Below are positions 5,328 through 18,211 of a DNA stretch of 29,377 nt, piece after piece. The notes under the pieces were generated by a model. That model ran no database searches. It worked only from the letters and a program-made list of their open reading frames with translations, and was not told where the DNA came from. Source of the DNA: a virus; IMG/VR virus record IMGVR_UViG_3300045988_091431. One strand, 5' to 3'. Every line of letters begins with the position of its first letter. The first letter of the stretch is position 1. The position numbers were made by a program, and so were the translations under genes.

Positions 5328-5635
5328 TAGGCCCCTTTACGCTTCCTATACCGGTCAATCATCGCCACCGCAGAACCCCCACCACGGCCACCAGACGCCA
5401 CATCAACCGAATACCGATCCAACATGCCCATAAAAGCCTTCACATGAGCACGAAGCGAAGCCACCAAATCCGCCCGGCCCTCACGCCACACACAATCATG
5501 AATCACCGCAGCATCCATGAGAAACAACCACTCCTCATCAGACACGTACTGCGCGCGACTATCCTCACCCCACACACGCCACCAACGACGCGTCTCCCCA
5601 CACCACTCACGACTATCAGGAAGCTCAGGCTGCAC
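5327..5635 (-). CDS. Terminase small subunit, start uncertain. The ORF track begins at a GTG at 5698, only 2 nt from the cos end. The most plausible start is the GTG at 5635 (GGTGGTGAG upstream; about 102 aa). The ATG at 5518 would give 63 aa
   Basis: Small basic-tailed ORF (C-terminus RYRKRKGA) between the cos site and terL. Its stop is translationally coupled to the terL ATG. Confidence 0.5.
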   Translation of the reverse strand: MQPELPDSREWCGETRRWWRVWGEDSRAQYVSDEEWLFLMDAAVIHDCVWREGRADLVASLRAHVKAFMGMLDRYSVDVASGGRGGGSAVAMIDRYRKRKGA

Positions 5636-5699
5636 AACACTCACCACCAACACAAAAAGTCGACAAACAGACAAAACCACAAAAGGGAGGTATTTCACT

Positions 5700-5710
5700 A
5701 AGCCGTACGA
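5700..5710. other. Cohesive-end (cos) site. AAGCCGTACGA on the plus strand is the complement of TCGTACGGCTT, which I recall as the 11-nt 3' single-stranded extension of C. acnes phages
   Basis: Exact 11-mer match. The minus strand immediately after it reads AGTGAAATACCTCCC..., matching my recollection of the left-end sequence. It lies directly upstream of terS. Confidence 0.6.
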
Positions 5711-5761
5711 GGTCTTGCACGCCTGTGCAGGGGGTGGTTCCCGTGGGGGTTGGCGGGTTTT

Positions 5762-6064
5762 TCACCATGGAATCAAGGTTTTTGTGGTTTGTTGTTGGAA
5801 TTTGATGTTTGGTTCGCTGCGATTGCCTTTGCTTCTGTTGCATGTTCTGCAGATGATTTGCCCGTTGTCGAGGGTGTTGAGTCCTCCCCTGCTGACGGGT
5901 GTGATGTGGTCGGCTTCGGGGCTGGTTGGAAGGTCGTGTGTGTTCCAGGTGATGGTGGCTCCGCAGAGTGGGCATTCGGTTTGGCCTTGTTGTCGGGCTT
6001 GGGTGATGAGCCTTGCCCGCCAGCGCCGGTGGGCTGATGATGCGGTGCGGTTGGTGTGTGCCAT
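5762..6064 (-). CDS. HNH endonuclease (100 aa)
   Basis: CPLCG ... DHITPVSRGG ... N-x-QIICRTCNRSKG: the two Cys pairs and H-N-N core of an HNH nuclease. ATG at 6064 with AGGAGA/AGGGGA upstream. Co-oriented with cos-terS-terL. Confidence 0.8.
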   Translation of the reverse strand: MAHTNRTASSAHRRWRARLITQARQQGQTECPLCGATITWNTHDLPTSPEADHITPVSRGGLNTLDNGQIICRTCNRSKGNRSEPNIKFQQQTTKTLIPW

Positions 6065-6254
6065 CGCGTCCCCTGATCTCCTATGGCCCCCGTGAGCCTC
6101 TCATTGCCTCTCTAAGGGCTTGGAATCGTCTGGGGGTAGGAATACTCTACCGGTGCCCTGCTATTCGATCCTAGGCCCTGTTTTGTTCGTTTGAGGGGGT
6201 GTTCTGTTTGTGCCGGGGTGTTTGTTTTCTCCACTACCCCCCTGGCATGTGAAA

Positions 6255-6283
6255 AATATCACATCGCCCCCCAGCTGTGTCAA
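6255..6283 (-). promoter_or_regulatory. Candidate sigma-70-type promoter on the minus strand, reading toward HNH, cos and the terminase genes. -35 TTGACA (6283-6278), 17-nt spacer, -10 GATATT (6260-6255)
   Basis: Perfect -35 hexamer and 4/6 -10 hexamer read from the reverse complement of 6255-6283. Confidence 0.3.
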
Positions 6284-6613
6284 AAGAAGAAGGACACGGA
6301 AGAAAAATGGGGGTGGATGGGTGTTCGCGTTTCACAGCTTAGCGCCTAGCGCCTAGCGTTAAAGGACACAGGCTAAGCGGGAACACCTTAAGGTTTTAAA
6401 GTCTTCTACATATAATATACACTTTAAGTCTTACCTCGTGTTAAGGGTTTAAGCGTGACACGCCGTACGCCTTCAGCCGAACACGCTAAGCCTGAAAGGG
6501 GCACGGGTGTAAGAGTGTGGGGAGTGTGCAACCGGGAGCGTGCGACCGGTGGTACACGAGTCACACGGTGAAAGCCCATCAGCGTTGACGGTAAAGGTTC
6601 CTCTTCTCCCCTG

Positions 6614-6668
6614 ATGAAGAAAAGAAGAGAAGAGAGAAAGAACCAAAGAGAGTAGAGAAGTAAAGAAG
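6614..6668 (+). repeat. 55-nt polypurine (AG) tract, preceded by the complementary CT-rich stretch TTCCTCTTCTCCCC (6596-6609)
   Basis: Read directly: atgaagaaaagaagagaagagagaaagaaccaaagagagtagagaagtaaagaag. Confidence 0.8.
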
Positions 6669-6890
6669 TTAACCCCTTAGCTCTTCTAAAACTTTTATAA
6701 CTTATAAGCTTTAAGACTTATAGGTTATAATATTAAAGTTTAAGACTGATGGTTAACTTTAAGTACTTAAGGTCTTTAAGGTCTTATAGTTATTTTAAGT
6801 TTTAAAGTCTTAAACACTGATGTTAAGTTTATATCCTTAAGTGCTTAGCCTTTAAGGTTTTATACTTAACTTAGGTGTTAAGGTCTTTAT

Positions 6891-6924
6891 ACTGATGCTG
6901 AGCCTTGAAGGGCTCAGTGCTAAG
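6891..6924. repeat. Hairpin element copy 1: CTGATG-ctgagcc-ttgaa-gggctcag-TGCTAAG
   Basis: 7-bp GC-rich inverted repeat, flanked by the same CTGATG and GTGCTAAG motifs as copies 2 and 3. Confidence 0.6.
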
Positions 6925-7001
6925 TGTGTAAGCCTTTAAGGTTATTAATTAACTTTAAGTGCTAAGCTCTTAAGTTTACTTAAAGTGTTTAAAGCTTTAA
7001 G

Positions 7002-7038
7002 ACTGATGCCGAGCCCTTGAGGGGGCTCGGTGCTAAGC
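7002..7038. repeat. Hairpin element copy 2: CTGATG-ccgagccc-ttgagg-gggctcgg-TGCTAAG
   Basis: 8-bp perfect GC-rich stem. 7003-7036 is near-identical to 7519-7552. Confidence 0.65.
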
Positions 7039-7519
7039 GTTAAGGTCTTAAGGGCTTAGCGCTAAGCCTTGAAGCTTTAAAGTCTTTGGTAGACTGATGG
7101 ATGTAAGGGTGAAAGCCGCGTCAGCGGATTTCGGCCTTGCGTCCAGCTGGCTACCTGTCCAGCCTATCATACCCCACCTGGGATGAGTCAAACTGGTGGA
7201 TTTGGCTCTATAGGCGGGTTTGAGGGGTGTAAACGGGTGTTTTTGGTAGTAAAGGTCCAAAAATTAAACCTAAACTTTTCCTTAAATTTTCTTAGAGTCT
7301 TGTAACCTTTGAGGGTGGTTAAGACTGAAACCCCTAGTCAGAACAGGTTTCACTCCCGGACAGCTCTCACACTGTACCCTTGTGTCCTTTCCGAACACGC
7401 TAGGCCCATCAGTGCTGATGGTCTTCCCTCAGGCTTTCGAGTACTCGTCGCTAGGGCTCCTCGTACTCTCAAGCCTTCCCTGATGGCGTGTACTCCTTTC
7501 AGGGCTGTGCCTGTTCGGG

Positions 7520-7555
7520 CTGATGCCGAGCCCTTGAGGGGGCTCGGTGCTAACT
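7520..7555. repeat. Hairpin element copy 3: CTGATG-ccgagccc-ttgagg-gggctcgg-TGCTAAC
   Basis: Same stem-loop as copy 2 located ~515 bp away, followed by further GTGCTAAG and CTGATG motifs (7561-7606). Confidence 0.65.
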
Positions 7556-7744
7556 GCTAAGACCATCGGTGCTAAGCGCTAAGACCTTAATGCTTGAAGG
7601 CTGATGCCCCCCTCTTTCTTTTACCGTGTCCTTCTTCCCCCTTAGTATCCCACACTGTCCACATAGTTGAGGCTTAGCTAACCAGGATAGGGGTTGATAA
7701 TCTATGCCGAGATGGCTGATCGTGTATCAGGCTGTGGGAGGCGT

Positions 7745-7778
7745 CTAGAATCGATCAGAATTGCTTGGGGGTATGAAT
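7745..7778 (+). promoter_or_regulatory. CTAGAATCGA box followed by the -10-like TATGAAT (7772-7778). Candidate early promoter or operator 1
   Basis: 10-mer CTAGAATCGA at 7745-7754 recurs at 8053-8062. Each copy lies ~20 nt upstream of a -10-like hexamer. Confidence 0.25.
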
Positions 7779-8052
7779 ACCTAGCCCCCACCCTGCAAGG
7801 CGCTCCTAGGCGTACCCCTGAGGCTTTAAACGGCATTTCTGGGCTACACCCTCCACGCCAGATCGACAGAGTGGCCTTGGGGGTGCACACCATACTAGGC
7901 GAATGTGGCCTATCTCACACAGTATGAGGGTGTGGATTCCATGCCCAGATCTGACACCTCGACCCCCGCCATGAAAGCCAAGGTAGATCTGCCGGGTCAT
8001 CTACCGGACCTGCTATCACCCAGACATACCCCTGAGACGCCCTAGAAGGCCC

Positions 8053-8253: not shown

Positions 8254-8276
8254 AAGGAGCACACACACCATGGATG
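8254..8276 (+). promoter_or_regulatory. Start-associated cassette AAGGAGCACACACACC-ATGGATG (copy 1)
   Basis: 23-nt identity with 10112-10134. Confidence 0.6.
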
Positions 8277-8578
8277 GCGCACTCATCACCCCATCCTTCA
8301 CCAGCCTCTACGGGCAGACAGAAATCAACCCACTCCACCCCACACACCTGGTAGGATGTGACATAGGCAACACCCACACGTCTATCATCTGCCGCCTGCA
8401 CCGTGCCAAAGTCGAGGAAGCCGTACGGCTCATCCGGCCCCTGTGGACTGTCACCCTCGACGGTGCCATATACGGACCCCAGGACTGGCAGCCACTCACC
8501 GCGGATGAGGCCGAGGAACTCCACGACATGATCGACACGATCGACGTCGACGCCATCATTGCCGAAGCCACACGATAA
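8270..8578 (+). CDS. Hypothetical early protein (102 aa), paralog of the next gene
   Basis: ATG with AAGGAG 10 nt upstream. Shares ...LDGAIYGPQDWQPLTADEAEEL... with ...SDGTVFSHNEWKPLTGGEATQL... of 8610-8921. Confidence 0.65.
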   Translation: MDGALITPSFTSLYGQTEINPLHPTHLVGCDIGNTHTSIICRLHRAKVEEAVRLIRPLWTVTLDGAIYGPQDWQPLTADEAEELHDMIDTIDVDAIIAEATR

Positions 8579-8609
8579 AAACCATCCACACACCAGAAAG
8601 GAACCCGTC

Positions 8610-8921
8610 ATGCAAAAGATCGCCAACCACTTCACCCAGCTCTACACCCCCGCCAGCTACGACTGCCCCACACCCTTCGACCTGACACGCCTCGAAAACC
8701 TCTCCTGCGACCACATGGATTTTGAGGGCCTCGCCGAAGCCTACCGGCAGAGCGTGGAAGCCGAACTCCACAAGCTGCGCCCCAACACATTCATCGCATC
8801 CGATGGCACCGTGTTCAGCCACAACGAGTGGAAGCCGCTCACCGGCGGGGAAGCCACGCAACTCTACTGGAATGTGAGCCGCATCAATGTTGGCCACCTC
8901 CTCACCCTGTACAGCCGATAA
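8610..8921 (+). CDS. Hypothetical early protein (103 aa), tandem paralog of 8270-8578
   Basis: ATG at 8610 with AAAGGAAC upstream (the ORF track's earlier TTG at 8559 is unlikely). Sequence similarity to the upstream gene. Confidence 0.65.
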   Translation: MQKIANHFTQLYTPASYDCPTPFDLTRLENLSCDHMDFEGLAEAYRQSVEAELHKLRPNTFIASDGTVFSHNEWKPLTGGEATQLYWNVSRINVGHLLTLYSR

Positions 8922-17214: not shown

Positions 17215-17613
17215 GTGAACCGAACCTACACCACCGCCGACATCATCCAAGCCGCCCAATGGATCTGGAACGGAGGCCCATGGAAACCCTCCGTGGAGCC
17301 GGGCATGCCACCACCACCAACCGCGCCACAACACCACGGCAACAACATCGTTACCATGATCGATCTACAGCTAGCCATCGACGACTACACCCTCACCTGC
17401 CAGCCATCCAAACAGCGAAAACATTTAGCTAGGCTGGCAGCATTCCGGGAAGTATACGGGTATGACCAAACCTATTCGGTGGCAGCCCAACGACTCGGAG
17501 TCACCCGGCAGACGGTGAAACAGTGGGCAGACCAAACACTCATCACCCTAACAGGCTACGCAAACAGTAGATACTATCCAGACGATAGCGACGACAGCAC
17601 AAGGATGGGATAA
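17215..17613 (+). CDS. HTH protein with a sigma-70 region-4-like C-terminus (132 aa)
   Basis: LARLAAFREVYGYDQTYSVAAQRLGVTRQTVKQWADQTLITL resembles sigma region 4.2 / HTH. GTG start with AGGGGA upstream. Confidence 0.55.
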   Translation: MNRTYTTADIIQAAQWIWNGGPWKPSVEPGMPPPPTAPQHHGNNIVTMIDLQLAIDDYTLTCQPSKQRKHLARLAAFREVYGYDQTYSVAAQRLGVTRQTVKQWADQTLITLTGYANSRYYPDDSDDSTRMG

Positions 17614-18151: not shown

Positions 18152-18199
18152 GTGCCCCAGCGGCAACCACCACAGATCGTGGCAGCACCGCTGGGGCAC
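18152..18199. terminator. Hairpin terminator between the convergent operons: 12-bp perfect stem GTGCCCCAGCGG / CCGCTGGGGCAC with an inner CCAC...GTGG stem. On the minus strand it is followed by TATTTTTGTGTC
   Basis: Read directly. The T-tract is on the minus-strand side, so it mainly terminates the late operon after the holin. Confidence 0.55.
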
Positions 18200-18211
18200 A
18201 CACATATTCAA

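Follow-up and report, generated by a model that had tools for sequence, protein, structure and literature searches.

The window analysed here, the whole 29,377 nucleotides of the virus record IMGVR_UViG_3300045988_091431, is a complete genome of Pahexavirus, the Cutibacterium (Propionibacterium) acnes phages, in reverse-complemented and permuted form. Its large non-coding region carries a series of short hairpin modules (CTGATG/GTGCTAAG modules), in which a GC-rich stem-loop stands between two constant motifs. The modules are repeated, conserved across the genus and kept paired, the orientation of their loops is biased, two of the copies evolve in concert, and next to them lies a further hairpin, termed hairpin E, with RNA-type covariation on the plus strand. 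Our preferred reading, held with middling confidence, is that the modules are RNA hairpins in the untranslated leader, or in a non-coding RNA (ncRNA), of the early operon.

A first-pass annotation of the window, made from its letters alone, had reported three copies of the module, and all three are present (modules B, C and D; Table 1), the first two starts given there including the A that precedes CTGATG. Modules C and D, described as near-identical, are in fact identical over 34 nt; 517 bp separate their starts. The perfect GC stems and shared flanks also hold, and all three loops are 6 nt long. A fourth member, module A, has the frame and spacing of the others around a weak TTAAG/CTTAA stem (fold z-score -0.76). 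Perfect hairpins whose stem has 7 bp or more and whose loop measures 3-8 nt are few: the 29.4 kb of the window hold just eight distinct ones, B, C and D among them, and no module copies occur elsewhere in the window beyond the array. Folded as RNA, the module hairpins reach -19 to -21 kcal/mol on the plus strand (z-scores -2.2 to -4.0) and are less stable by 3.5-7 kcal/mol on the minus strand.

Table 1. Coordinates of the modules and associated features (window numbering; strand of the window)
Feature	Position	Strand	Remarks
Co-oriented CTGATG array	6611..7606	+	CTGATG at 6611, 6746, 6817, 6892, 7003, 7094, 7415, 7480, 7520, 7601; GCTAAG/TAAG words between
AT-rich, TAAG-rich stretch embedding modules A-C	6650..7000	.	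GC about 0.37; length and sequence variable; no conserved RNA fold
Putative promoter toward the modules	6703..6731	+	perfect -10 TATAAT at 6726-6731, weak -35; conserved
Module A	6817..6848	+	CTGATG, TTAAG-TTTATATC-CTTAA, then GTGCTTAG; weak AT stem, not conserved
Module B	6892..6924	+	CTGATG 6892-6897; stem CTGAGCC/GGCTCAG 6898-6904/6911-6917, 7 bp; loop TTGAAG; then TGCTAAG
Module C	7003..7037	+	CTGATG 7003-7008; stem CCGAGCCC/GGGCTCGG 7009-7016/7023-7030, 8 bp; loop TTGAGG; then TGCTAAG
C unit, first copy of 83-nt direct repeat	7003..7085	+	module plus TAAG-rich tail; 78% identity to 7520-7602
Hairpin E	7088..7155	+	68 nt, 27-bp interrupted stem-loop; CUGAUGG (7094-7100) in 5' arm; covariation, plus-strand-specific
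ORF annotated gp45 (SKKY and some other records; PHROG 14941)	7309..7560	+	overlaps copy D, ends just past D
Module D	7520..7554	+	CTGATG 7520-7525; stem CCGAGCCC/GGGCTCGG 7526-7533/7540-7547, 8 bp; then TGCTAAC
D unit, second copy of 83-nt direct repeat	7520..7602	+	module D as head

We compared the region across 80 IMG/VR loci, retrieved through gp44, and about 64 additional metagenome phage contigs, which yielded about 135 distinct versions of it. Modules C and D occur in nearly all of these, at fixed positions, and B in about one-third of relatives (24 of 67; 34 copies in the wider set). The stem of A is often disrupted, by TAAAG and TGAAG variants that are uncompensated. Overall, 262 of about 280 GC-type copies (94%) have a perfect 7-bp stem. 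Differences between the arms of the paralogues come in matched pairs (CCGAGCC/GGCTCGG, CTGAGCC/GGCTCAG and CTAAGCC/GGCTTAG, the last in a single phage): pair 2 is CG or UA, pair 3 is GC or AU, and the stem of B differs from those of C and D by a compensatory C:G to T:A change. Across the paralogue comparison 96.3% of cells are paired, versus 11-51% with slid partners. Covariation, proposed as a check at first pass, is seen between paralogues; within C and D there is invariance only. Natural loops measure 4, 5, 6 or 7 nt, a variation that a hairpin tolerates and that a rigid dimer site on double-stranded DNA would not.

Hairpin E, which lies 50 nt downstream of module C, provides the strand-specific evidence. 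An RNAalifold scan of both strands gave -43.4 kcal/mol with nine compensatory pairs for the plus strand of 7086-7310, versus -23.8 kcal/mol with two for the minus strand, and the signal was traced to this hairpin. Its 27 pairs are 99.1% paired across 26 distinct sequences (27-49% with slid partners), five of them show double compensatory changes, and the covariation score is 0.225, versus 0.141 +/- 0.008 in shuffles. Two main haplotypes have wholly different apical stems, GAAAGCCGC...GCGGATTTC and GGGAAGTGC...GCACTTTCT, below the same GTCA loop, and rarer variants bring further paired changes. G·U pairs account for about 16% of the cells and on the minus strand would be A·C mismatches; since these pairs are valid only on the plus strand, they are the signature of a plus-strand RNA and not of a cruciform. 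As far as comparative sequence data can do so, this shows that an RNA is read from the DNA beyond module C, toward the early genes, and hairpin E looks like a structured RNA element of Pahexavirus that has so far gone undescribed. Folding of the wider module region on both strands, as the first-pass annotation had proposed, likewise gives the more stable structure on the plus strand: for 6738-7660 (923 nt), -350.6 kcal/mol (z -9.3) versus -308.4 kcal/mol (z -5.9), a gap of 42 kcal/mol.

The loops of the modules carry a second indication of strand. In many phages the entire palindrome is reverse-complemented while the flanks stay unmoved, the loop reading CTCAA instead of TTGAG. Inverted loops were found in 6 of 91 scorable C copies and 15 of 88 scorable D copies, and local trees imply at least 5 independent inversions in C and at least 14 in D, that is at least 19 among 95 genomes. 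A reversible flip of this kind should reach about 50:50, yet the flipped form stays at 6-16% and never forms a clade; the forward loop is thus favoured, and its orientation appears to be under selection, which would imply a strand-specific reading of the element.

These observations bear directly on the proposal, made at first pass beside that of RNA hairpins, that the modules are recognition sites for a dimeric protein. The palindrome CCGAGCCC-N5-GGGCTCGG would then be a double-stranded operator for a dimeric regulator, such as a small helix-turn-helix (HTH) protein encoded at 17215-17610. An operator would be expected to show the perfect dyad symmetry and the invariant arms seen in the modules, and the right arm of the genome does encode an HTH/sigma-region-4-like protein. 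However, half-site spacing is variable, and a spacer of 4-7 bp would rotate the half-sites; the three arm variants always change symmetrically, as pairing predicts, unlike degenerate recognition; the flanks are asymmetric and fixed; and the central spacer of an operator should flip freely, yet the forward orientation is maintained. The proposal fits poorly, and we consider it quite improbable.

Modules C and D do not evolve independently. Within a single genome they carry the same variant in 57 of 97 cases, versus 37.8 +/- 3.5 expected by chance, and this excess indicates gene conversion, that is, concerted evolution. The repeat is also a site of deletion. One contig (IMGVR_UViG_651703073; 29,017 bp) has a single chimeric module, with the left flank of C and the right flank of D, and has lost about 490 bp between the two, hairpin E included, a configuration that recombination inside the 34-nt repeat would explain. 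The deletion matches one reported for phage PAS50 (PMC3094311). It is rare (1 of 48 fully spanning regions), and as the phage that carries it is viable, one module and the intervening 490 bp are dispensable for viability.

Gene conversion and repeat-mediated deletion are also what would be seen if the modules were functionless by-products, either a palindrome duplicated by recombination or a selfish unit of the repetitive extragenic palindrome (REP) or miniature inverted-repeat transposable element type, whose identity is kept by gene conversion only. The resemblance of the arms to a ubiquitous local word (GCTAAGCC/GGCTTAGC) and the gain and loss of B among genomes fit that description as well. 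Drift of this sort would hardly leave C and D in nearly all genomes, with 94% perfect stems, while the AT-rich DNA around them turns over; the rarity of the C x D deletion and the bias in loop orientation would not be expected either, and no copies exist elsewhere in the genome or in bacterial genomes. We regard this explanation as very improbable.

On our preferred reading, an untranslated transcript would be made from the plus strand of the window (minus in GenBank), heading for the genes of the right arm, which are presumably early. Transcription would begin in the AT-rich centre, at the conserved -10 element or close to it, and run toward gp44. Each module would present the same frame, CUGAUG, a stable GC hairpin and GUGCUAAG (B, C, D and, nominally, A), and the modules would punctuate a long, highly structured leader, or a separate ncRNA, that also holds hairpin E, with selection keeping the pairing and the orientation of the loop (UUGAG). 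The likeliest role would be in recognition, stability or processing of the RNA, through binding of a phage or host factor or through protection or structuring of the leader; pausing is also a candidate, and termination is unlikely. The invariant flanks argue for a sequence-specific partner. Framing, pairing, tolerance of loop length, loop bias, co-orientation with hairpin E and position after the promoter together argue for hairpins read on one strand. Of the two suggestions made at first pass, that of hairpins within a non-coding RNA is the better supported, by paralogue pairing, loop length, loop orientation and hairpin E; we infer the RNA itself, the action of the modules in the same RNA as hairpin E, the position of the promoter and the molecular role.

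Several observations weigh against this reading. Across about 240 copies, no compensatory change was found within C or D, whose arms are invariant, and the rare single mismatches have no strand bias (about eight G·U on the plus strand and about eight on the minus strand), so that the modules themselves carry no RNA-specific signal; their invariant arms could equally mean sequence-specific recognition of DNA. The AT-rich part holding A and B has no conserved fold (the alifold energy of 6735-6900 is only -0.4). The putative promoter was not called by a consensus scan and has a poor -35 element, we found no Pahexavirus transcriptome or transcript data in the literature searched, and no trans-acting factor was identified. 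A viable natural variant lacks one module and hairpin E. Finally, the modules lie within a published putative origin of replication, beside an AT-rich stretch and an iteron-like array.

The last point leads to the principal alternative, in which the modules are DNA elements of a replication origin: CTGATG would serve as an iteron-like initiator site, and the GC palindromes would extrude hairpins or cruciforms, or fold in transiently single-stranded DNA, beside the AT-rich unwinding region, and aid opening or priming. Iteron-type origins combine direct iterons with an inverted half-iteron operator, and here ten co-oriented CTGATG motifs within 1.0 kb adjoin DNA of GC 0.37, with one inverted pair, CATCAG-TG-CTGATG, in the window. 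That near-palindrome had been noted at first pass; it exists, at 7407-7420 (one base from the position given), and it is not conserved, occurring in a minority of phages, while most have a CTGAGGG-TGTT-CCCTCAG hairpin there instead. The arm sequences are almost invariant. The repeated inversion of the loops and the gene conversion between C and D show that, in vivo, the palindromes are involved in hairpin or template-switch events at the level of DNA. A DnaB-like helicase and a DnaG-like primase are encoded by the phage, and no recognised initiator. Among the right-arm proteins no Rep, HUH, initiator or origin-binding domain was found, and a search of the right-arm open reading frames (ORFs) for an origin- or RNA-binding protein gave only a weak HTH/sigma-region-4-like match.

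The region was proposed as an origin on the grounds of a GC-skew switch and low GC (Marinelli 2012, PMC3448167). On the plus strand of the window, GC skew is about -0.3 and AT skew about +0.3 genome-wide, whatever the gene direction, the sole exception being approximately 5500-8000. This uniform strand asymmetry points to one-directional replication or single-strand exposure, and because the sign never switches elsewhere, the skew-based argument for an origin here is weak; a G/U-rich structured plus-strand RNA could be an alternative cause of the local switch to G over C. The one-strand G·U covariation of hairpin E indicates RNA and not a cruciform, the forward loop orientation is selected, and one module with 490 bp can be lost. 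The origin explanation stays viable, since the modules are without an RNA-specific signal and the transcript is a presumed one, and we rate it as a serious though rather doubtful contender.

Within an RNA framework, the modules might instead be factor-independent terminators or attenuators without a U-tract, stopping or pausing leader transcription to set early-gene expression. Very stable GC hairpins do stand between the putative promoter and the first early gene, and 'I-shaped' hairpins lacking a U-tract have reportedly been proposed as terminators for Actinobacteria. The one clear terminator of the phage itself, a large convergent and bidirectional hairpin at 18153-18201 between the gene arms, has a T-tract for the minus-strand (late) transcript only and is likewise without one on the plus strand. 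That the modules are not ordinary terminators, as the first-pass annotation held, is borne out: of the features of an intrinsic terminator they have the GC-rich stem-loop (7-8 bp, -19 to -21 kcal/mol) and lack the U-tract 3' of the stem, on either strand and after every copy (the 3' flank is TGCTAAG or TGCTAAC on the plus strand and CATCAG on the minus strand), and a terminator scan calls none at the modules. In vitro work on mycobacterial RNA polymerase is said to have found the U-tract necessary for intrinsic termination. In addition, transcription must continue through C, given that the conserved hairpin E and module D lie past it with the same orientation, and a terminator has no need of an invariant CUGAUG/GUGCUAAG frame or of a particular loop orientation. 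We consider such a function unlikely.

The DNA that holds the modules had been taken as non-coding, and this assessment stands, even with the annotated gp45 over copy D. Of 67 relatives, 60 have a broken gp45 frame, and its codon-position diversity is flat (0.099/0.080/0.093), so a protein-coding gp45 was rejected; from these two patterns, the ORF was probably called as a gene in error. We also set aside small peptides initiated at the AUG of CUGAUG, as their frames run for 4-30 codons and are altered by the loop flips (by eye).

We further compared the region with known elements. Rfam 15 gave no match at the gathering threshold for the region and none even at E <= 10, which disposes of a hammerhead RNA, suggested by the CUGAUGA-like CUGAUG; the best sub-threshold matches are at chance level (CRISPR-DR36, 18 bits versus a threshold of 38, on hairpin E). 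A site of the XerCD/dif or lox type, which has a similar layout of inverted arms, asymmetric spacer and direct repeats, was set aside since no recombinase is encoded; the module arms also do not appear to resemble actinobacterial dif. An RNA anti-CRISPR was rejected because the host repeat GTATTCCCCGCCTATGCGGGGGTGAGCCC (PMC3316620) differs in stems, loop and handle in a by-eye comparison, sharing with the modules only the general flank-stem-loop-stem-flank layout; most C. acnes lineages are without CRISPR (PMC3316620). As to a host-derived element, scanning bacterial genome contigs for GAGCC-N4-9-GGCTCRGTGCTAA returned scattered chance matches only, namely 49 single matches in unrelated taxa and none in Cutibacterium, with about 200 chance matches estimated.

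Within a larger pattern of co-oriented motifs, which the first-pass annotation missed, the modules are what stands out most. On the plus strand CTGATG occurs 10 times in 6300-7700 versus 6 times across the other 28 kb, while 9 of 10 GCTAAG and 5 of 5 GTGCTAA fall inside the region. Modules and all CTGATG/GCTAAG motifs share one orientation, and most motifs of the CTGATG array are at least 97% conserved. The tails of the two 83-nt direct repeats can form a duplex of -36.5 kcal/mol, versus -22.7 kcal/mol when shuffled; long-range pairing was rejected, however, because the tail of a random other genome pairs equally well (-37.2 kcal/mol), the strength arising from the self-complementary GCTAAG/CTTAAG vocabulary, with no co-evolution. 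We also observed that GCTGATGG is one base off the E. coli Chi sequence GCTGGTGG; arguments from the orientation of a Chi-like array are ambiguous.

The 1.9 kb around the modules match 231 phage records at 80-93% identity, on the minus strand of those records near the right genome end; all 231 are Propionibacterium/Cutibacterium acnes phages (Pahexavirus), and no others matched in the phage collection. The published cohesive-end sequence TCGTACGGCTT is found at 5700-5710, which together with the match to the right genome end identifies the window as a whole permuted genome. Structural genes lie on the minus strand, and the replication and early genes (DnaB-like helicase, split DnaG-like primase, exonucleases, RusA) on the plus strand from 8270 onward. 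The modules sit within the >1 kb 'large non-coding region' of the genus, which has been described as having low GC, conserved low-complexity runs and a GC-skew switch and was proposed as an origin or regulatory region (Marinelli 2012, PMC3448167; Bruggemann & Lood 2013, PMC3652107). For its AT-rich centre, Lood & Collin (2011, PMC3094311) predicted divergent sigma-70-like promoters and gave the one at 6703-6731 as a leftward 'gp45' promoter. Hairpins, stem-loops and the modules receive no mention in these three papers, nor do the covariation and the plus-strand RNA hairpin E. The region is thus known. In the literature we searched there is no description of the modules, of their loop flip-flop, of the way C and D evolve in concert, of hairpin E or of gp45 as non-coding.

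Long stretches of the non-coding region are at least 97% conserved, exceeding gp44 itself. Nearly all of a polypurine tract, GAAGAAAAGAAGAGAAGAGAGAAAGAACCAAAGAGAGTAGAGAAGTAAAGAAG at 6612-6670, is conserved at that level across 67 phages; preceded by the complementary CCTCTTCTCCCC, it is probably one of the 'low-complexity runs' of Marinelli et al. In the AT-rich promoter-like centre (6690-6740), TATAAT-rich insertions or duplications of about 13-56 nt differ between phages. To the left (6250-6620), the alignment folds better on the minus strand (-44 versus -24 kcal/mol) and many one-sided changes are G·U-compatible, a pattern consistent with divergent transcription from the AT-rich centre and weaker as evidence than hairpin E. 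A short tandem repeat, TAGCGCC TAGCGCC TAGCG, lies at 6340-6358 beside more GCTAAG words. Two nested long-range inverted repeats flank the non-coding region (6103-6144/8083-8124 and 6286-6316/7607-7637): each outer arm has a -10-like hexamer and CCTACCCCCAGA and may represent paired gene-proximal promoters, and each inner arm yields, on the strand transcribed outward, a tract rich in C and poor in G that may be rut-like. The first two genes past the region (8270-8918, plus strand; 102 and 120 aa) are paralogues, both of PHROG 919, and the first diverges unusually widely among phages (60-97% amino-acid identity).

A bolder extension of the RNA reading, which we put forward tentatively, is that the non-coding region is not mainly an origin spacer; it would be the gene for a modular structured RNA of about 0.9 kb or longer, read toward the early genes. 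It would consist of repeated CUGAUG-hairpin-GUGCUAAG units and hairpin E. The units may offer several places where a phage or host factor docks or carries out processing, and might sequester a host RNA-binding protein or nuclease or release small RNAs. Such a gene, if real, would constitute a new class of phage non-coding RNA and would account for the local GC-skew switch.

Phages of C. acnes rank among the leading candidates for phage therapy of acne and for skin microbiome engineering. Their genome is small and unusually uniform, and 5% of it is taken up by a non-coding block that has had no explanation, although parts are better conserved than the neighbouring genes. The present analysis finds in this block RNA-type structure that is under selection, in the form of hairpin E and of the framed hairpin modules, and thereby gives concrete elements for mapping the origin, the early promoter and leader, and pseudolysogenic maintenance. 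It also guides the engineering of phages by suggesting which sequences are probably deletable and which required, the PAS50-type deletion marking one module and 490 bp as dispensable.

The modules look like a familiar kind of element, a structured cis-acting or non-coding RNA of a phage regulatory or origin region, and not like something categorically new. In layout they resemble the leader-RNA elements of lambdoid phages, nut (boxA plus boxB hairpin) and HK022 put, which likewise place a short conserved single-stranded motif beside a small stem-loop in untranslated RNA past an early promoter and occur as more than one orientation-dependent element per genome. In contrast to these, four to five modules lie in series per transcript here, versus one per operon, with stems of 7-8 GC-rich bp versus 5 bp; we identified neither an N-like protein nor a boxA consensus nor downstream terminators, and there is no Rfam match. 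REP units, their composites (bacterial interspersed mosaic elements, BIMEs) and mRNA-stabilising hairpins resemble the modules in being repeated, in lacking a U-tract and in having the form of palindromes about 35 nt long whose head sequence is conserved; REP/BIME units are imperfect to perfect palindromes, transcribed and able to protect RNA. REPs, however, are spread chromosome-wide in tens to hundreds of copies and linked to the REP-associated tyrosine transposase (RAYT), whereas here three to four copies occupy one 700-bp stretch, none occur in bacterial genomes and no RAYT/HUH gene was found. With iteron origins, ColE1 RNA II and the T4 ori R-loop the region shares a co-oriented motif array by an AT-rich stretch and a structured transcript, the latter here only presumed. 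It differs from iteron origins in its irregular spacing (40-321 bp), which is not helically phased, in an inverted pair that is not conserved and in having no Rep-like initiator. Lastly, the loop inversions resemble the 'flip-flop' micro-inversions of chloroplast non-coding DNA, where a palindrome is also reverse-complemented, only its loop looks inverted, and the event recurs independently across many lineages; there the two orientations are usually near-neutral, whereas here one orientation stands at 84-94%, implying selection.

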